Below, one piece after another: positions 15,225-57,671 of a DNA stretch of 64,000 bases. Position 1 is the stretch's first letter; each line of letters begins with the position of its first letter. The notes under the pieces are model-generated. The model saw nothing but the letters and a program-made list of their open reading frames with translations. It was not told the DNA's origin and made no database searches. The position numbers and the translations under genes were made by a program. This DNA is from Candidatus Latescibacterota bacterium (GTDB lineage: Bacteria > Latescibacterota > UBA2968), in the NCBI GenBank assembly GCA_965205975.1, contig OZ242195.1, positions 3,232,001-3,296,000 on the forward strand, written 5' to 3'.

Positions 15225-16232
15225 CTAGAACGTTCCCGAAAGCGTCAAACGCAGCGGTCGCTCTTTAATAGCACCGCCGATATCGCTATACGAAACATCC
15301 ACACTTATCTTGCGCTCTTCGCTCACATTGAGATTCAAACCCGCCCCCACGCTCCAGGTCTCCACATCGTACCTGAACTTATAACCGGCGCGAAGTGCCA
15401 GCAGATTTTGTATCCACAACTCGCCGCCAATGTGATCGCGCTCTCCCCAATCGCGGAAAAACACATGCTCATAAGCACCCGTCAGATAAAGCGGATCGCC
15501 TTGCTTACCCAGCAATTCCATCGCAACAGCCAGATTGTAGAAAAACGGCAGGCGATAATCCTCGGTCAGCACTTCCTTATTGCCACCGAGATTGCTGATG
15601 GTCATGCCCACGCGCAGACTCTTGAAACCCGTGTAAAAAATCGTGCCGATATCAAATGTCGTGGAACTCACATTGATGATGTGAAGCTGAGACCGCACAT
15701 AGCGCAGGCGAAAACCCATCGAAAACTTATCGGTCAGTTGCTTGGCAAAAGATCCCGCAACCGAAAAATCACCCAGCTTGATATTTCGCCCCGTGCCATC
15801 GGGTTGCATGGGCGTGGTCTCTTCCACATCGGGATAGGTAAACGTGCGAAAAGAGACACCCACAACGCCTATGGGAATGCGATAGGCAAAACCCCCAGCG
15901 CCCATTTTGGTGCCCACCAGCCACTCGTTATAAGAGGCCAGATACGCCATATTGTCGATATGTACCAGCCCTGCTGCATTCTGGAATATCGAGTGAATAT
16001 CTCGCGACGTGCCCACATTGGCATCGGCCATGCCCGCCAGGCGCGCAGATGCCGAAATTTTCAAAAGCGCGAACCCACTGCGCGCGATGCGGTTACCCCT
16101 ATCGCCTTCCGAGCGAAAATGCCCTTCCGCAGCTATGGGTTCCAGATCATCAAAGCCTGCCACATCCTGGGCCATGGCACTTTGAGGGCTGAGAAAAAGC
16201 GCGATAGCCGCTATCCAGATCAGATATTTCAT
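15225..16232 (-). CDS. PorV/PorQ-family outer-membrane beta-barrel
   Basis: Signal peptide; LLKISASARLAGMADA...SIFQNAAGL, LALRAGY, terminal F. Confidence 0.8.
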   Translation of the reverse strand: MKYLIWIAAIALFLSPQSAMAQDVAGFDDLEPIAAEGHFRSEGDRGNRIARSGFALLKISASARLAGMADANVGTSRDIHSIFQNAAGLVHIDNMAYLASYNEWLVGTKMGAGGFAYRIPIGVVGVSFRTFTYPDVEETTPMQPDGTGRNIKLGDFSVAGSFAKQLTDKFSMGFRLRYVRSQLHIINVSSTTFDIGTIFYTGFKSLRVGMTISNLGGNKEVLTEDYRLPFFYNLAVAMELLGKQGDPLYLTGAYEHVFFRDWGERDHIGGELWIQNLLALRAGYKFRYDVETWSVGAGLNLNVSEERKISVDVSYSDIGGAIKERPLRLTLSGTF

Positions 16233-16259
16233 AATTTGCTCCTCAATAATGACCAATGA

Positions 16260-48671: not shown

Positions 48672-48938
48672 ATAAAAAAGCCCCTTCGTCATCATAGGGA
48701 CGAAAGAGCTTTCGCGGTACCACCCTATTTGCGCTTAAAAGCACCACTCAGCGGATGGCCATCACCATCCTGTCCATTATCGGCGGACCCACCGGCTCGG
48801 CTTAATAGGAAACTGTCTCTCCATTCGGCTTTGCAGCTCGGGAGGGAACTTCGCCTGTGCATCCTGCAGATGTGCTTTCAGCCCAGGACACATCCTCTCT
48901 GTGCAGTTGGGAACAGGCTACTTTTCTCCGTCATAGCT
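48672..48938 (-). ncRNA. T-box riboswitch (Phe) controlling pheS-pheT
   Basis: Stem I with GA motif, AGTA, AGAGA and GCTGAA; specifier UUC at 48846-48848; T-box AATAGGGTGGTACCGCG (48713-48729) with partner TCGTCCCT; terminator plus U6. Confidence 0.93.
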
Positions 48939-48948
48939 TTAAAGGCAA

Positions 48949-48993: not shown

Positions 48994-50907
48994 CTATCCG
49001 TCAACCGTTTTTCCAAATACACTCACAAACAGGAGAAAATCGGGAAAATCAACACTGCCGTTCCTATCGATATCGTATTGGGCCTCGGACGATCCAAATG
49101 CACTCACAAACAGGAGAAAATCAGCAAACTCGATTATGCCATTGCCGTCAAAATCCGATTTGACTTCCACAGAAAGCGGCTGAACAACGCCAGAAATCGT
49201 CAGCATAAACTTCGCGCGATCCGGATCATTACTCAAAATACTGATATTACCCGAAAACTCGCCCTCCATGGGCTTGGGAAACGTAATCGTAATCGTCGCC
49301 GAACTATCCGGAGATAGTGTAAACATAGAAGGCTCAAACGTCAAACCCGACACATCGCTCTCAATACCCGTAATCTCCAAAGGCGCAGTTCCCGTATTCG
49401 TAATCGTAAAAGTCTGCTGAGCCGTCTTTTCGGCATCAATACTCCCGAAATCAATTGCGGGTGCCCCCACAACCAGCACTGGCGCAGGTGCCGCCTGCAC
49501 AATCACAGAAACGGATAATGTTTGTGTTGCACTATTCGGATCATTACTCGAAATCGTGATATTACCCGAAAAAGTGCCCTCCGTCGAACTCGGAAACGTA
49601 ATCGTCACCGTCTGTGAACCGTCAGGTTCCAATGTGAACATCGTAGTATCAAACGTCAGACCCGACACATCGCTCTCAATACCCGTAATCTCCAGCGGTG
49701 CAGTACCCGTGTTCATAATCGCAATCGTCCGTTGACCTGTTTGGCCTGCCTCAATAGCACCGAAATTAACAGCCGTTTGCTGAACCGCAATCGCTGGCAC
49801 AGGTCGCGGCTGAACGGTCACAGAAACGGATAATGTCTGTGTTCCACTCTTCAGATCATTACTCGAAATCGTGATAGTACCCGAAAACGTACCCTCTGAC
49901 GAACTCGGAAATGTCACCGTCACCGTCTGTGAACCATTGGGTACCAGTGTGAACATATAAGGCGTAAACGTCAAACCCGACACATTACTCTGAATACCCG
50001 TTATCTCCAACGGCGCAGTACCTGTATTCCTGATCGTAATCGTCCGTTGAACTGTTTGACCTGCTTCAATAGTGCCAAAATTAACTGCTGTTTGCTGCAC
50101 AGAGATCGCTGGCGCGGGGGGCGGTTGAACAATCACAGAAACGGATAATGTCTGTGTTGCGCGATCCGGATCATTACTCGAAATCGTGATATTCCCTGAA
50201 AATGTGCCCTCCACAGAACTCGGAAATGTCACCGTCACCGTCTGAGAACCGTTGGGTGCCAGTGTGAACATTGTAGTATCAAACGTCAGACCCGACACAT
50301 CGCTCTCTATACCCGTAATCTCAAGAGGAGCAGTGCCAGTGTTCTCAATCGTAATTGTCTTTTGAACCGTTTGTGCAAACGCAACAGTACCGAAATCAAG
50401 CGCTGTTTGCTGCACAGAGATCGCTGGCGCAGGTGGCGGTATTTGCGCCAACAGTTCAGTAACCTTGGCTGCTGCTGCAGAAATAGAAGATCCTAGGCCG
50501 CTTCTGGAAAATTTCACAGTCCCATCGGGGCCAACCACAACGAGATGATCATGCCCAGCCGGAGCAGAACCACCTGCTTGTATAAGCATGGGAAAGGTGA
50601 TGCCTCTGCTAAAACCCTCAACCTGAGTACGACTACCATCCCAGGTATCGAGACCGAGCATCACAATATTGCTGCTTTGTGGATCTTTTTTTAAGTCTTG
50701 CCATAACTGTTCGAGTCGCGGCACCGCCGCTTGACAGGTTGGTCAGCCATACCCAATCATCGCAAGCACCAGCACTTTACCGCGATATTGGGAGGCACTA
50801 TATGTCTTGCCGTCAAGGCCCGTTAAAGAAAAATTAACCGTTTGTGCATAAGTGGTCCCAACGAGCAAAAGCAGAACCATCGGGATGGACAATAGATATT
50901 TGCACAT
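48994..50907 (-). CDS. Putative secreted selenoprotein: TlpA/Prx-like thioredoxin fold (UPTC) + 4 Ig-like (choice-of-anchor D/ASH-like) repeats + dockerin/EF-hand-like tail, 637 aa
   Basis: MCKYLLSIPMVLLLLVGTTYA-QTVNFSLTGLDGKTYSASQYRGKVLVLAMIGYG-TGA(50743-50745)-PTCQAAVPRL continues in frame into track ORF 48994-50724; hairpin after the TGA. Confidence 0.82.
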
Positions 50908-50963
50908 GGCGTTTATCCTCAGACATTGCCAAAAAAATCATTCACAAAGCCCGCCGCGAACAA

Positions 50964-53183
50964 TCAGTTGAGCTTTTTGCCAAAGTGATTGACAAAGATG
51001 AGAAAATCCGATATACCGACCACACCATCGCCATCGATATCGTATTTGGGATCGGATGTTCCAAAAGCACTCACTAAAAGGAGAAAATCGGCAATAGCGA
51101 TTACGCCATTGCCGTCAAAATCCGATCTGGCTTCCTCAGAAAGCGGCTGGACAATTCCAGAAATCCTCAGCGTATGCGCCGCGCGATCCGGATCATTGCT
51201 CAAAATATTGATAAGCCCCGAAAACGTGCCCACCATGGATTCGGGAAACGTAATCGTAATCGTGCGTGAACTATTGGGTGCCAATGTGAACATCGTAGTA
51301 TCAAACGTCAAACCCGACACATCGCTTTCAATACCCGTAATCTCCAACGGCGCAGTACCCGTATTCGTAATCGTAAAAGTCTTCTGAGCCGTCTTTTCAG
51401 CATCAATACTCCCGAAATCAATTGCGGGTGTCCCCACAACCAGCATCGGCACAGGTTCCGTCTGCACGGTCACAGAAACGGATAAGGTCTGGGTTGCAGT
51501 ATTTGGATCATTACTCGAAATCGTGATAGTACCCGAAAACTCGCCCACCGTCGAACTCGGAAACGCAATCGTCACCGTCTGCGAACCGCCAGGTGCCAGC
51601 GTGAACGTCGTAGTATCAAACGTCAAACCAGACACATCACTCTCAATACCTGTTATCTCCAAATCTGCGGTACCCGTATTTGTAATCACAATCGTCTGCT
51701 GAACCGATTGGGCAAACGCAACAGTACCGAAATCAACTGCCGTTTGCTGCACAGAGATCGCTGGCGCGGGGGGCGGTTGAACTGTGATAGAAACGGATAA
51801 GGTCTGGGTTGCAGTATTCGGATCATTACTCGAAATCGTGATAGTACCCGAAAATGTACCCTCCGTCGAACTCGGAAACCTGATCGTCACTGTCTTCGAA
51901 GCATCAGATTCCAGTGTAAACATCGTAGTATCAAACGTCAAACCCGACACATCACTTGTAATACCCGTAATATTTAAGGACGCAGTACCCGTATTCGTAA
52001 TCGCAATCGTTTCCCGACCAGTTTGACCCACGACAATAGGATCGAAATTAACTGCTGTTTGCCGAACACTGATCGCAGGCACAGGCGGCGGTTGGACTAT
52101 GATAGACACGGATAATGTGCTTGTTGCACTATTCGGATCATTGCTCGAAATAGTGATATTACCCGAAAACGTGCCCTCCGTCGAACTCGGAAACGTAATC
52201 GTCACCGTCTGTGAACCGTTGGGTTCCAGCGAGAACATCGTAGTATCAAACGTCAAACCAGACACATCACTCTCGATACCCGTAATCTGCAGCGTTGCAG
52301 TACCCGTATTCTCAATCGTAATTGTCTGTTCACCTGTTTGACCCGCGACAATAGGATCGAAATTAACTCTCTCCTGCACGGAAATCGCTGGCACAGGGGG
52401 CGGTTGCACGCTCACAGAAACGGATAATGTGCTTGTTGCACTATTCGGATCATTACTCGAAATAGTGATATTACCCGAAAACGTACCCTCTGCAGAACTC
52501 GGAAATGTAATCGTCACCGTCTGCGAACCGTTGGGTTCCAGTGTGAACATCGTAGTATCAAAAGTTAGACCCGACACATCGCTCTGAATACCTGTAATTT
52601 CCAGCGTTGCAGTACCCGTATTCGTAATCGTAATCGTCTCTTGACCCGTTTGGCCTGCGTCAATAGTGCCGAAATCAACTCTCTCCTGCACGGAAATCTC
52701 CGGTGCAGGTGATGGTATTTGCGCCAACAGTTCATTAACCTTGGCTATTGCGTTACTCCGGACAGTGGAGGAACTCAAACTGCGACCCGAAAACGCCACA
52801 GTCCCATCTGGATCAACGACAACGAGATCCTCACGACTAAAACCTGTGCCACTTGCGGATAGAAGCAATGGAAAGGTGACTGTCGCACGGCTGCCAAAAT
52901 TCTCAAGCTGAGTCTTATTGCCATTATAAACATCAAGACCGAGCATGGCAACATTGGAGTTACTGCTATAATTTCCCCATAAACTTTCGAGTGACGGACC
53001 CGCCGCTATACAGGTCGGTCAGTTATACCCGATGACCGCAAGTATGAGCACCTGACCGCGATAGTCAGAGGCGCTATATGTACTGCCGTCGGTGCCTGTT
53101 AGAGAAAAATTAACTGTTTGTGCAGAGGCAGACCCAACGAGCAAAAGCAGAATCATCGGGATGGACAATAGATATTTGCGCAT
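50964..53183 (-). CDS. Putative secreted selenoprotein paralog: thioredoxin fold (UPTC) + 5 Ig-like repeats + dockerin/EF-hand-like tail, 739 aa
   Basis: MRKYLLSIPMILLLLVGSASA-QTVNFSL...AVIGYN-TGA(53019-53021)-PTCIAAGPSLESLW joins track ORF 50964-52946 in frame; TGA is codon 55, as in the paralog. Confidence 0.82.
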
Positions 53184-54328: not shown

Positions 54329-54420
54329 ATTTAGGAATCCGTGCTTTCGAGTCACATATATATAGCGGGTGGAAAAACAAGCGGACAGCGGTCAGTAGTC
54401 AGTGGTCAGCTAAAAATTTT

Positions 54421-54453
54421 CTGGATCGCGGCTCAAAATCATGCCGCGATGAC
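54421..54453. repeat. Family-2 palindrome
   Basis: ctggatcgcggctcaaaatcatgccgcgatgac. Confidence 0.85.
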
Positions 54454-54493
54454 AGACCGTCCCCAGCACAACAATCGTCTATCCGGAGTCATA

Positions 54494-56380
54494 ATGAGCA
54501 AACGCGATGCAGAACAAGTGCAAAAAGTATTGTCTGGCGACCAGGCTGCTTACGAACCGCTGGTCAAGGCGTATCAAGGACGCATCTATGCCTTCGTGGC
54601 TGGTCGAACCCGCAACTTTTCCGCGACAGAAGACATCGTACAAAATGCGTTTGTGGAGGCATATATGCACCTCAAGTCTCTAAAATCGCCCGAAAAATTC
54701 TCAGGTTGGCTGCGGGGAATTGCACTCAATCTATCGAACAAATGGCTTCAACAAAAACGCCCAGTCGTCTCAATGGACGACACATCACAAGATGTGACAC
54801 CTGAAATATCGGAATTTCCATTGCCAGACCTACCCGACGAAGCACTGGAAAAAACCGAAACAAAAGAAGCCGTCATAGCCGCTATTGATACATTGCCAGA
54901 CATTTATCGGGAAGCGGTATTGCTCCACTACATGGAAGGCATGACCTATCCCGAAATCGCAGCCTTTCTCGACATCCCCGAAAGCACAGTAACCGGACGC
55001 CTTCAGGTTGCGCGCAATCGCTTGCGCGACGAATTGATGCCGCTGGTAGAAGACACGCTCCGCGAAAAACGTCCAACACCTCAATTAACGCGCAAAATAA
55101 TGGCCGCATTACCCCCGCTATTGTACGCAGTGCCAACGCAGGCGAGCCTGCTCGCCAAACTGAAAGGAACAGGCATGATAAAAATAATGGGTATCATCGG
55201 CGCAGGAATCGCGGGAACGGGATTGTATTTTGGTGGGATTTCGGCAGTATGGAATTTAGGACAAGAAAACACTGAGCCATCCCAGGTGCCCCAAATACAG
55301 CTCGAATTGGAAAACCTCGCTCAAAATGAGCAATCCGTTCCTGAGAAAACTAACGAAACAGAGGGCGTAGAATCTTCGCCACAAGAAGTCCAATCCGATT
55401 CCAATACAAGTGGCGACACACAAACAGAAAAACTGGACTTCAGAATGGAAACTTCGCCACAAGATTCACTGGTAAAAATAGTGTACTGGATCCCAGAAAC
55501 GATTTATTCAGACTCCGTCTTTGCAGAAATTGATTTCTTCAATATTCACGGTGCAAGGGCTGCCAAGCCGGTCAAAAAAACACACGCACCCGGCTCTTAT
55601 ACGGCGTTTTTATCCAAACGGGGATTGCCTGATGGCAGATACCTGGTAAGGTTATCCGCAACACAGCAATCCCTGAAAGAACATCAAGAGGTACATCACG
55701 CATTGGAGTTGGTCTGGAGATACAGATATCAATATGAAGGCAATGTACAACAAAAGATGGACTTTAAAATAGTAAGTTCGCCGGGGGATTCAATAATGGA
55801 AATTGCGTATTGGATTCCAGAAACGATTTATTCAGACCCTGTCTTTGTAGAACTCGATTTCTATAACAGTCACGGTGCAAGGGCTGCCAAGCCGGTCAAT
55901 AAAACACACGCACCCGGTTCTTACACGGCGTTCTTGCCTAAACGGGGACTTCCCGACGGAACATACTTTGTGAGATTAAGAGCAGATCGGTCAGAAGAAA
56001 ATGCGGAGCGACGCTCATTGAAGCTGATTTGGCCATACAGAAATCAACCAGAACCCAAAGACCCAATAGACTTCAAAATAGAAACTTCGCCACAAGATTC
56101 ACTGGTGAAAATCGCGTATTCGATTTCGGAAATGTTTTCTTCACACCCCGTCTTTGTAGAAATCATTTTCTTCAATAATCAGAATATGATGGTAGCCAGG
56201 CCGGTCAACAAAACACACGCTTCCGGTTCTTATACAGCATTCTTATCCAAACGGGGGTTACCTGATGGAACATACTGGGTGAAGATGACAGCCGGACGAG
56301 ATTTCACATTACAGGGATCTCCTCATTCTCCTTATACCGTGCGTCGCAGAGAGAATCTAATCTGGACAAAAAGAAAGTGA
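54494..56380 (+). CDS. ECF sigma factor fused to a TM segment and three FlgD-Ig/T9SS-CTD-like repeats
   Basis: EDIVQNAF, FSGWLRGI, EIAAFLDIPESTVTGRL; hydrophobic segment IMGIIGAGIAGTGLYFGG; three repeats of I.Y.I.E...V..EI.F.N...A.PV.KTHA.GSYTAFL.KRGLPDG.Y.V. Confidence 0.85.
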   Translation: MSKRDAEQVQKVLSGDQAAYEPLVKAYQGRIYAFVAGRTRNFSATEDIVQNAFVEAYMHLKSLKSPEKFSGWLRGIALNLSNKWLQQKRPVVSMDDTSQDVTPEISEFPLPDLPDEALEKTETKEAVIAAIDTLPDIYREAVLLHYMEGMTYPEIAAFLDIPESTVTGRLQVARNRLRDELMPLVEDTLREKRPTPQLTRKIMAALPPLLYAVPTQASLLAKLKGTGMIKIMGIIGAGIAGTGLYFGGISAVWNLGQENTEPSQVPQIQLELENLAQNEQSVPEKTNETEGVESSPQEVQSDSNTSGDTQTEKLDFRMETSPQDSLVKIVYWIPETIYSDSVFAEIDFFNIHGARAAKPVKKTHAPGSYTAFLSKRGLPDGRYLVRLSATQQSLKEHQEVHHALELVWRYRYQYEGNVQQKMDFKIVSSPGDSIMEIAYWIPETIYSDPVFVELDFYNSHGARAAKPVNKTHAPGSYTAFLPKRGLPDGTYFVRLRADRSEENAERRSLKLIWPYRNQPEPKDPIDFKIETSPQDSLVKIAYSISEMFSSHPVFVEIIFFNNQNMMVARPVNKTHASGSYTAFLSKRGLPDGTYWVKMTAGRDFTLQGSPHSPYTVRRRENLIWTKRK

Positions 56381-56387
56381 GGTCAGC

Positions 56388-57671
56388 ATGTATTTCAACA
56401 AGTGCAAACTGGTAGCAAGTCTGGCAATATGTCTAATTGCATATTCCCCGTGTCTTGCACAACAGCCAACCCATTCCAAAGAAGAAATGAATCGCTTTAA
56501 TCAATTTAGGAGCGGATACCCTCCCGAGACCACAGAGCAGTATTGGGAAGGCATTCGGGGATTGGAGCAACTGCTTGCAGATTATCCCAATACCTTTTTG
56601 AAAGGCGACATCTCCATCACCCTGTTGGGTTATTACCAACACGTCACCGATGATCCACACCTGTTGATTGAACTCTCTGAAAAAATGCTCGCATCGCAAA
56701 TGTATTCCAGCGGCGCTTACCAAACGGCTGCTCGGGTACTCGTAGATAAGAAAGTTCGATCTGATAAAACGCTTCTATATGCACAAAACGCATTAAAAGA
56801 AGCATTGCAGAACCAGGAAAAATGGGGGAATAATGGTCGAGGAGAACTCATCTGTCGCGATCTATTGGCGCGTGCTCATCAACTCCTTGGACAACACGAC
56901 CGTGCTGTCCAAAAAATAAAAACCGCGATACGCGGTTGGCAAACCCGAGAAGATTTAGGCGACCTGGAACTGGCATCTCGGCAGGCATCAGTAGATAGGG
57001 CAAAGACCCACTTGCTTCGGATCTATAACGACCAAAAAGCATGGACAGAGGCTTATGAACTCGCCTCAGAACTATTGCTCACGTCGGTCATCCGCACGGA
57101 TATAGCAGAACTGTGGAGCCAGGCTTATGTTGGCAAGCAAGGCTCAGGTGCAGGAATGAGCAAAGCATACGCTGCCTTAAAATCCGAGTGGGATAAGAAA
57201 ATTATCCAACGCGTCGAAAAAAAACGCATATCACGCCCTGCACCGGCCTTTGAAGTCCAAAAGCTGAACGGTGAAAAAATCATTTCAGAGGACTTAAAAG
57301 GCAAAGCTGTGGTACTAACATTTTGGGCGGGATGGTGTAGCCCGTGCATTGAAGAACTGCCCTATCTTCAAAAGCTCAAAGCGCAATTTCTCAAGCAAAA
57401 TGTCGAATTTTTAGCTGTAAATATCGACCAAGACAGCTCAATGCGCCGGGATATGGTCGCCAGCTTTCGCTACCAGACCGCACCGCTCTTAACCTTTGCA
57501 TTGGGCGATCTGGAAATGCGAAAAGCGTTTGGATCCGCCGAGATTCCATATACCTGTATCATCGACCAGAACGGACAGATTCGGTATGAACGCAAGGGAT
57601 TGGGTGCAGATTTCAGCGTGGCAATGGCACATCAAGTGCAATGGGTCATCGGAATGGGTGAAGCACAGTGA
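56388..57671 (+). CDS. Secreted TPR-like + TlpA thioredoxin-domain protein
   Basis: Signal peptide, helical N-terminal part, PAPAF...LKGKAVVLTFWAGWCSPC...ELP. Confidence 0.88.
   Translation: MYFNKCKLVASLAICLIAYSPCLAQQPTHSKEEMNRFNQFRSGYPPETTEQYWEGIRGLEQLLADYPNTFLKGDISITLLGYYQHVTDDPHLLIELSEKMLASQMYSSGAYQTAARVLVDKKVRSDKTLLYAQNALKEALQNQEKWGNNGRGELICRDLLARAHQLLGQHDRAVQKIKTAIRGWQTREDLGDLELASRQASVDRAKTHLLRIYNDQKAWTEAYELASELLLTSVIRTDIAELWSQAYVGKQGSGAGMSKAYAALKSEWDKKIIQRVEKKRISRPAPAFEVQKLNGEKIISEDLKGKAVVLTFWAGWCSPCIEELPYLQKLKAQFLKQNVEFLAVNIDQDSSMRRDMVASFRYQTAPLLTFALGDLEMRKAFGSAEIPYTCIIDQNGQIRYERKGLGADFSVAMAHQVQWVIGMGEAQ

Follow-up and report, generated by a model that had tools for sequence, protein, structure and literature searches.

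We identify two tandem genes, in a genome of an uncultured bacterium of the Latescibacterota group, that almost certainly each encode a single selenoprotein, with one internal TGA read as selenocysteine (Sec). Each product joins a signal peptide and a UxxC redox head of thioredoxin fold to a stalk of Ig-like repeats and a dockerin-like tail. Judged from aligned sequences, the head is a subfamily without the thioredoxin cis-proline, having Asp, Glu or His in its place. [quoted passage not shown]

Results

Organization of the gene pair

The window, the whole stretch of 64,000 nucleotides that was analysed, carries both genes on the reverse strand, with the following parts.

50964..53183 (-): gene B, predicted 739 aa with TGA read as Sec; signal peptide, UxxC head, 5 Ig repeats, dockerin-like tail
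53121..53183 (-): B signal peptide, aa 1-21; basic start, hydrophobic core, A-S-A cleavage before Gln, without lipobox
53019..53021 (-): B in-frame TGA, predicted Sec55 in U-P-T-C58
52993..53004 (-): B candidate SECIS core, 4-bp stem, GGUC loop, starting 19 nt past UGA
52704..53120 (-): B head, same fold as A, Glu at the cis-proline position by alignment with A
51144..52703 (-): B stalk, 5 choice-of-anchor-D / ASH-HYDIN-type Ig repeats
50967..51143 (-): B dockerin-like tail, Pfam Dockerin_1
48994..50907 (-): gene A, predicted 637 aa with TGA read as Sec; signal peptide, UxxC head, 4 Ig repeats, dockerin-like tail
50845..50907 (-): A signal peptide, aa 1-21, by eye
50743..50745 (-): A in-frame TGA, predicted Sec55 in U-P-T-C58
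50718..50730 (-): A candidate SECIS core, 5-bp stem, GGU loop after 17 nt
50428..50844 (-): A head, TlpA/ResA-like thioredoxin fold (AhpC-TSA/Redoxin), Asp at the cis-proline position
49174..50427 (-): A stalk, 4 choice-of-anchor-D / ASH-HYDIN-type Ig repeats
48997..49173 (-): A dockerin-like tail; model matches type II dockerin 2y3n_B

Gene A lies downstream of B across a gap of 56 nt, and the two likely form one operon; a promoter and terminator scan returned 9 promoter-like sites against 6.5 ± 2.7 by chance. The heads are 60% identical, and both signal peptides were assigned by eye from sequence. An earlier sequence-only reading had described each paralog as split by a single in-frame TGA at codon 55, and both reading frames bear this out: the one internal TGA stands in the context IGYG-U-PTC in A and IGYN-U-PTC in B, and the genes end on stop codons of their own (TAG in A, TGA in B). 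Contigs from one DNA run, possibly that of the source sample, span both internal TGA codons with 0 differences (records 26, 28).

The internal TGA is almost certainly read as selenocysteine

The Sec machinery on which that reading depended is all present in this genome (G000), with selA, selB and selD above cut-off and a tRNA-Sec; selD carries an in-frame TGA of its own, and selA was found in 57 of 61 related genomes. Among 64 distinct homologous heads from fetched loci, the Sec55 column holds TGA in 56, a Cys codon (TGT or TGC) in 8 and no other residue, which argues that the TGA at codon 55 is not there by chance. Five of the eight Cys-codon heads belong to dockerin-tailed members of the family, and Cys occupies the column in 161 of 167 representative domains. 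The TGA thus sits where the first Cys of a TlpA/ResA-like motif belongs, as had been claimed, and homologues carry Cys there and never Trp. The prediction that gene callers would miss the head also holds: all 30 of the "longer" database matches cover just 53-71% of it, as expected if callers begin past the TGA.

We find it barely credible that the TGA instead ends translation, encodes Trp or marks a decayed pseudogene, with the halves made separately or not at all. In favour of a stop, more long open frames of this genome close with TGA than with any other codon (690/1748), and gene B itself terminates with it. Against a stop stand the conservation of the internal TGA across a class and in Eisenbacteria, where it alternates solely with Cys codons, and the frozen codons that follow it; it also falls inside one domain, so that separate translation would cut the head in two. 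Recoding to Trp was rejected, since the sole tRNA with a TCA anticodon is tRNA-Sec and TGA is a common stop.

Codon constraint marks a SECIS-like hairpin

The codons 3' of the TGA are held fixed as a SECIS-like hairpin. Where Gly-Pro occupies +7/+8, GGT-CCG encodes it in 47 of 52 TGA forms, compared with 1 of 4 Cys forms and 261/2615 genome-wide, and G at +19 is present in 56/56 TGA forms. Pairing in the hairpin reaches 72.4% against 66.4 ± 1.0 in shuffled sequences (0/500), above every slid control, and the GGU loop closure of A recurs in selD of the same genome. The published geometry asks for a hairpin 16-37 nt past the UGA, a G opening a loop of 3-9 nt and a stem of at least 4 bp (PMC13188914). 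The candidates in A and B fit it; 343 of 690 ordinary TGA ends pass the loose rule as well, and we dropped it as evidence: it is the codon constraint that discriminates. The core hairpins are weak (A -7.1, B -2.5 kcal/mol, against published values of -7.5 or lower). Longer folds reach -13.3 (A) and -16.2 kcal/mol (B), that of B in another register, the lowest-energy fold of B being a different hairpin from the candidate core. A genome-wide hexamer screen for read-through TGA codons was too noisy to define a selenoproteome and served as a source of leads only.

A thioredoxin-fold head without the cis-proline

The sequence-only reading had called the head TlpA-type. Its thioredoxin fold and UxxC position stand; it is not a standard TlpA. 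The predicted model (pLDDT 93) has ResA, DsbF and 2ls5 as closest folds (Z 16.5-17.2), with UxxC at the start of helix 1, and 33 of 34 heads match AhpC-TSA (PF00578). The cis-proline before strand beta-3 that marks TlpA, ResA and CcmG is absent: in 63 locus heads the column, located by aligning sequences with 3kcm, holds D in 23, E in 18, H in 13 and P in 2, and Asp occupies it in 132 of 167 representative domains. Scores stay below the cut-offs of the ResA, TlpA and DsbE models (28.9 bits against 170 for the curated ResA model). The head falls outside every NCBIfam selenoprotein model (TUGYCR comes closest, with 21.6 bits against a cut-off of 100), and ESM Atlas returned generic AhpC/TSA clusters only. 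A peroxiredoxin identity was rejected: the PxxxTxxC/U motif is absent, Sec is first in UxxC, and an acid or His, not Arg, stands at the cis-proline position.

In a quick tree the head subfamily forms a separate branch (SH-aLRT 99); its 88 rows comprise 35 locus heads, all Pro-type and dockerin-type representatives and ~30% of the rest, and it gives no order of tail swaps or of Sec/Cys changes. Passages of PMC2757866 and PMC2665069 describe the cis-proline as normally aiding protein-substrate binding and blocking metal binding; its loss weakens the case for a plain disulfide reductase.

Stalk repeats and dockerin-like tail

The stalks are as the earlier reading had counted them, 4 repeats in A and 5 in B of ~100 aa each, with a spacing of 104-105 aa. 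The last repeat of A is divergent, 56-61% identical to the other repeats and 81% to the last of B. Relatives have 0-14 repeats, including stalks of 11 and 14. Cys or Sec occurs in A and B at positions 2, 55 and 58 only, and the repeats have neither. The repeats match the OS_HP2 / DUF1573 model NF041425 (123 and 134 bits), scores summed over 4-5 repeats; with no Sec in an Ig domain, membership of that family was rejected.

The tail carries the paired DxDxNG..DF motif of a duplicated calcium loop and helix. Its model in A superposes on type II dockerin 2y3n_B (TM 0.84, rmsd 1.6); Pfam Dockerin_1 scores 25.6 bits in B against a cut-off of 22.9, and A falls below it. The proposed dockerin-like anchor holds as to fold and motif, though not special to A and B: the tail is a generic tag, found on about 60 proteins of this genome.

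Neither A nor B has a T9SS tail, and one is found in 1 of 59 dockerin ORFs of the genome (2/60 by pattern). Such a tail is present in relatives: TIGR04183 is above cut-off in 8 of 12 Cys-type representatives tested, and C-terminal in 3 of 3 tested TGA-type orthologues of a sister family (f3) and in 1 of 2 Eisenbacteria TGA forms. That one and the same head comes with either tail points to dockerin tags doing the job of secretion tails in this lineage. The genome has SprA and PorV homologues above cut-off, a PorU-like gene with a match below its cut-off, and 13 T9SS-tail matches; searches for the GldM motor found none in it, and control searches were silent too.

A conserved 268-aa protein at G000:C1:1293573-1294379 combines a cohesin-like domain with a T9SS tail and is, by its domain content, a candidate socket for the dockerin tail. 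Its cohesin score is 23.1 against a Pfam cut-off of 24.1; matches to PDB entries are weak (E 0.19-0.67), yet 8/8 are cohesin-bearing proteins. All three cohesin-like domains of the genome lie in T9SS-tailed proteins. In 53 genomes of two families (f1 and f2), each with 22-107 dockerin and 6-27 T9SS-tail matches, a cohesin-like domain was found in 53/53; five f3 genomes have 1-17 dockerins and 18-78 T9SS tails, with a weak cohesin-like match (3) or none (2), and these co-occurrences, drawn from three related families, are not independent cases. One genome of a fourth family has 44 dockerins and no cohesin-like match. The adaptor is linked to dockerin genes at 1 of 30 loci, against a background of 4%. 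Together, the T9SS-tailed orthologues and the candidate cohesin socket lend support to surface display.

Distribution

The head was matched in 55 of 61 related genomes, and the family is common in an uncultured class. A GTDB scan with a single head gave no match, and one with an alignment of closer rows gave 24 loci. Six RNA runs labelled sponge metagenome contain 5-7% of the words; in three of them, related-strain contigs cover parts of the stalk, tail and B-type head and next to none of A's TGA region, transcription or its level not being readable from contigs. The family was not found in the literature searched on selenoproteins, Latescibacter, dockerin/cohesin and T9SS, which was mostly open-access text.

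Discussion

We propose that UGA55 would be decoded as Sec by SelB acting on the hairpin ~19 nt downstream; the machinery and the codon constraint are observed. The signal peptide would deliver the chain to the periplasm. The calcium-binding dockerin may bind a cohesin-like domain, in the 268-aa adaptor or in either of two large T9SS-tailed proteins, a docking suggested by tail swapping and co-occurrence, and the protein would reach the surface carried along through T9SS or be captured there. The head likely acts as an oxidoreductase: by analogy with thioredoxin-fold chemistry, Sec55 would attack a disulfide or small oxidant as the oxidised substrate, and Cys58 would resolve the selenenyl-sulfide, with stalk length setting the reach of the head. 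A role against host oxidants or on extracellular disulfides, as the sequence-only reading suggested, may follow. Counting against a surface reductase, we know of no extracellular electron donor. More tentatively, and with somewhat less conviction than for the docked oxidoreductase itself, we suggest that A and B are the first members of an outer-surface selenoenzyme family whose non-canonical thioredoxin active site lacks the cis-proline, in a lineage where a dockerin plug replaced the T9SS tail on most proteins of the surface; tail-less cargo proteins by the dozen would ride on, or be caught by, one small cohesin-T9SS adaptor, and 0-14 repeats would tune reach to host or matrix.

Other functions and locations would fit parts of these data. 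With the same Sec and docking, the head could be a trap for metals or metalloids (Hg, As, Cu), liganded by Sec55, Cys58 and whichever acid or His takes the place of the cis-proline. We consider this unlikely, though it draws on the Asp, Glu or His seen at that position in 54 of 63 locus heads, on the prevalence of Asp in the representative domains, and on the report, in parts of PMC2757866 and PMC2665069, that cis-proline keeps CxxC thiolates from binding metal. A trap would also need no electron supply outside the cell, and 6 of 34 heads show weak SCO1-SenC matches; however, ResA/DsbF-type oxidoreductases are nearest in fold and Sco ranks below them, and no metal-resistance genes flank the pair within the window.

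Electron supply would equally cease to be a problem if the proteins were periplasmic TlpA-like reductases that never pass the outer membrane, fed by a DsbD/CcdA-type carrier and tethered or oligomerised by the dockerin. ResA and TlpA relatives do work in the periplasm, and A and B lack a T9SS tail. We nevertheless hold this location to be rather improbable, given orthologues in which a T9SS tail occupies the same position, the confinement of this genome's cohesin-like domains to T9SS-tailed proteins, and stalks of 11 and 14 repeats that, by an estimate from Ig-domain size, would be longer than the periplasm is wide. Far less probable still, the head would be a reductive dehalogenase of the deiodinase kind, with halogenated aromatics of a sponge host as substrates. 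Related strains do occur in runs labelled sponge metagenome, and NCBIfam deiodinase_rel matches 5 of 12 Cys-type relatives weakly (30-69 bits against a cut-off of 250). An aromatic-acid-Arg motif (Y-D-R) at the cis-proline position presumably recalls deiodinases, but the Arg is mostly absent in Latescibacterota heads, the Pfam deiodinase model matches 0 of 34 heads at E 0.1, and no deiodinase is among the fold matches listed.

If the docked surface oxidoreductase is correct, a bacterial selenium enzyme beyond the outer membrane would apparently occupy an undescribed site, raising the questions of what the head reduces or binds and how it is re-reduced. The family is widespread and hidden, since databases hold the headless stalk only. 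The same head with a T9SS tail or a dockerin amounts to a natural swap experiment, and a dockerin in place of a secretion tail, if true, would account for some 60 proteins in each genome. The many Cys members of the cis-proline-less subfamily with T9SS tails offer an easy bench entry.

Comparison with known systems

[quoted passage not shown] A and B resemble these thioredoxin-fold proteins in having Sec first in CxxC, the same Pfam families and a SECIS-like element directly after the UGA; they differ in adding a signal peptide, a stalk and a dockerin (or, in relatives, a T9SS tail) and in lacking the cis-proline. The comparison is with the text and Table 1 of that 2026 review, the text containing 0 occurrences of "secret" or "signal peptide". 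The OS_HP2 / DUF1573 selenoproteins of the same table share the Ig-type repeat model, but their Sec lies within the Ig domain, in a UGC motif.

With ResA, TlpA, CcmG and DsbF (PDB 1st9, 3ios, 2ls5), A and B share the fold, the N-terminal beta-hairpin, the position of CxxC and an export signal. They have Sec for the first Cys, G-Y/H-x-U-x-x-C rather than W-C-x-x-C, and Asp, Glu or His for the cis-proline, and they fall on a separate tree branch; where those proteins have an N-terminal membrane anchor, A and B have a soluble signal peptide and a C-terminal anchor.

The tail and the Ig module before it are like the type II cohesin-dockerin systems of cellulosomes (PDB 2y3n, 2b59). Sections of PMC8542988 propose a cellulosome-like complex for Ca. 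Stygibacter (Cloacimonadota), in which, as here, cohesin-like domains are joined to a surface-sorting C-terminal domain. Unlike in cellulosomes, the cargo of A and B would be a selenium redox protein and not a hydrolase, and the candidate socket, as predicted from sequence, is a single-cohesin protein of 268 aa.

Results

Two read-through genes in tandem

The paralogs lie 56 nt apart on the minus strand.

50964-53183, minus strand: gene B, 739 aa, one internal TGA (codon 55) in translation
48994-50907, minus strand: gene A, 637 aa, one internal TGA (codon 55) in translation

As the sequence-only reading had claimed, a single in-frame TGA at codon 55 splits each gene, in the shared context G-Y-G/N-[TGA]-P-T-C. 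Its proposed domain order also held: read-through joins a signal-peptide-like N-terminus (judged by eye in both), a redox head above cut-off for the AhpC-TSA and Redoxin models, a stalk of four (A) or five (B) repeats that hit choice-of-anchor D and ASH/HYDIN-type Ig models, and a tail with paired calcium loops. A and B share 60% identity in the head; the tail-adjacent repeat, the most divergent one, is common to both at 81% identity. Contigs from a DNA run, which may be that of the source sample, read across the two TGA codons with 0 differences. A third Sec paralogue in the source genome, G000 (G000:C1:3042841-3044070), has two repeats and a dockerin-like tail; in complete homologues the number of repeats ranges from 0 to 14. 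The modelled tail is a structural match to type II dockerins (2y3n_B, TM 0.84, rmsd 1.6), and such tails are generic in G000 (59 ORFs by HMM, 60 by pattern).

Around the pair, a T-box leader (window 48693-48943, minus strand; Rfam RF00230, 109.6 bits, gathering 93) directly follows gene A, upstream of pheS/pheT. Allowing up to 5 mismatches, a 38-nt intergenic repeat (plus strand; window 48615, 53254, 54226 and 54420) has four copies in the window, one on each side of the pair, and 14 across the genome. Window 54341-57671 (plus strand) encodes an ECF sigma factor with three fused repeats that match no Pfam family, then a TPR and ordinary Cys TlpA protein.

The internal TGA as selenocysteine

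The internal TGA of A and B is almost certainly decoded as selenocysteine. The sequence-only reading had named Sec machinery and homologues with Cys at the TGA column as checks, and both were found. G000 (5.56 Mb, one contig, 98% complete) encodes selA, selB, selD, which has an in-frame TGA of its own, and tRNA-Sec, its only TCA-anticodon tRNA; selA is present in 57/61 related genomes. Head matches (E 1e-8) occur in 55 of these 61, a count that also takes in paralogues of a more distant type and a few matches to ordinary TlpA proteins. Among 64 distinct heads, drawn from the best 30 loci of the 61-genome search, 20 picked regions, 24 GTDB-scan loci and one own locus, the site is TGA in 56, a Cys codon in eight, and Trp or any other residue in none. 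The Cys-codon heads comprise five dockerin-tailed family members, two ordinary TlpA proteins and one broken head. Beside this alternation, a true stop at codon 55 is scarcely credible.

Downstream, GGT-CCG is used in 47/52 TGA forms having Gly-Pro at +7/+8, compared with 1/4 Cys forms and 261/2615 Gly-Pro pairs genome-wide, and nucleotide +19 is G in 56/56 TGA forms. This frozen stretch folds as a short hairpin whose loop is GGUC, with double changes at two stem pairs and a geometry that agrees with the published bacterial SECIS model, as far as the consulted part of its source describes it (PMC13188914). Pairing is 72.4% vs 66.4+/-1.0 in shuffled alignments (0/500) and above every slid control, although the 43 distinct rows are kin and the statistic is hence no probability. 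Against the hairpin evidence, 343/690 ordinary TGA ends also satisfy a loose SECIS rule, the core hairpins of A and B are weak, and B's lowest-energy fold lies in another register; what carries the Sec case is therefore conservation, together with Cys alternation and codon constraint, rather than fold energy.

Elsewhere in G000, four further AhpC/TSA-family genes have an active-site in-frame TGA (G000:C1:4716027, 1533641, 392750 and 3426787), for a total of 7/24 AhpC/TSA-family matches; one TGA-bearing gene adjoins selD and tRNA-Sec. Candidate read-through genes with G-loop hairpins lie at G000:C1 1214906 and 4358871.

Distribution and annotation

Standard gene callers had been expected to miss the head, and all 30 longer database matches span just 53-71% of it, so the selenium head is being missed in databases; the named ones are choice-of-anchor D proteins. 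Close relatives in the databases bear Gemmatimonadota MAG labels, and the 24 GTDB-scan loci are titled Latescibacterota/Latescibacteria (16), Gemmatimonadota (3), Eisenbacteria (4) and uncultured bacterium (1). Related-strain contigs occur in three RNA runs labelled sponge metagenome, which indicates neither transcription nor the habitat of G000. Four Ca. Eisenbacteria loci (L094, L096, L097, L098) pair a Sec head, encoded with the same GGT-CCG codons, with a tail of T9SS/FlgD type. In L068 and L136 (G060) the frame changes between Sec head and T9SS-like tail, which may reflect assembly errors.

Secretion tails and a candidate socket

A T9SS type A sorting domain follows the head directly in 8/12 Cys-type representatives tested, in 3/3 tested TGA forms of f3, a sister family in the same class, and in 1/2 Eisenbacteria TGA forms. 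G000 has SprA, PorV homologues, 13 sorting-domain matches and a PorU-like gene below cut-off; a GldM search found no match, with controls also silent. Its three cohesin-like domains all lie within T9SS-tailed proteins. Two of these are large, each also with a dockerin motif; the other is minimal:

G000:C1:1293573-1294379 (L102:4574-5380): cohesin-tail protein, 268 aa, solely signal peptide, cohesin-like domain and T9SS tail

It is kept across the order at 50-98% identity, often in several copies. High per-genome counts in the table should be read as minima, and the families do not count as independent trials.

Table. Dockerins, T9SS tails and cohesin-like domains in families of related genomes
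f1 and f2 (53 genomes): dockerins 22-107, T9SS tails 6-27; cohesin-like domain in all
f3 (5 genomes): dockerins 1-17, T9SS tails 18-78; cohesin-like match weak or absent
f4 (3 genomes): dockerins 44-63; cohesin-like match in 2/3

On the simplest reading of these sequences, the dockerin took the place of the secretion tail, and the cohesin-tail protein is a putative socket, a candidate for about 60 dockerin-tagged proteins. Against this, its cohesin assignment is borderline and its gene is unlinked to the dockerin genes.

L061:316-3861 (G010), which lies about 2 kb from the gene of a cohesin-tail adaptor, joins the same Sec head and a dockerin to leucine-rich repeats and an end resembling HExxH metallopeptidases, with no Ig stalk (domains named by eye). 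Upstream of a PorV-family gene (window 15225-16256, minus strand) are encoded a 914-aa protein that matches no Pfam family and a 1092-aa TonB-plug protein. Two secreted proteins (G000:C1:2006768-2007511 and 3586148-3586882) combine an N-terminal dockerin with an ordinary Cys TlpA domain and, by their domain content, would be a second kind of redox cargo under the same tag.

Discussion

We propose that A and B are surface-docked selenium oxidoreductases, a reading that as a whole chain we favour slightly. Its parts, putative surface docking and predicted redox turnover by the head, are each probable. In the predicted cycle, the target of Sec55 would be a disulfide or small oxidant, and the resulting intermediate would be resolved by Cys58. 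That A and B are instead periplasmic reductases is improbable: the sorting domains on homologous heads point to the surface.

The remaining alternatives concern the chemistry of the head. Its model (pLDDT 93) has ResA, DsbF and 2ls5 as nearest folds (Z 16.5-17.2). A dehalogenase is very improbable. The cis-proline column, located by alignment with 3kcm, holds Asp in 23, Glu in 18, His in 13 and Pro in 2 of 63 locus heads, and Asp in 132/167 domains of the best 150 representatives; proline forms stand apart from the head subfamily in a quick tree (88 rows, SH-aLRT 99). In the parts of the sources consulted, cis-proline is reported to aid substrate binding and prevent metal binding, and peroxiredoxins to have Arg there (PMC2757866, PMC2665069). 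A metal or metalloid trap, rather than a redox enzyme, is consistent with this column and unlikely overall; the ResA- and DsbF-like fold is consistent with the oxidoreductase that we prefer.

Judged by model and alignment, the head would work like a TlpA-type CxxC domain, which it resembles in fold, yet is no strict member because it satisfies none of the curated NCBIfam families and mostly has Asp, Glu or His in place of cis-proline. Literature searches limited to main texts listed nothing on this selenoprotein family. UxxC thioredoxin-fold selenoproteins are already known, with several in Table 1 of a 119-family survey (PMC13188914); in the portion consulted, none of these entries bears a name marking it as secreted, T9SS-tailed or dockerin-tagged; the survey's text has no match to 'secret' or 'signal peptide'. 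The A/B family is real, widespread and apparently undescribed, and its kind is already known. For the docking, the part consulted of an earlier study proposes cohesin-dockerin pairing with a C-terminal surface domain beyond clostridia, in Cloacimonadota (PMC8542988).
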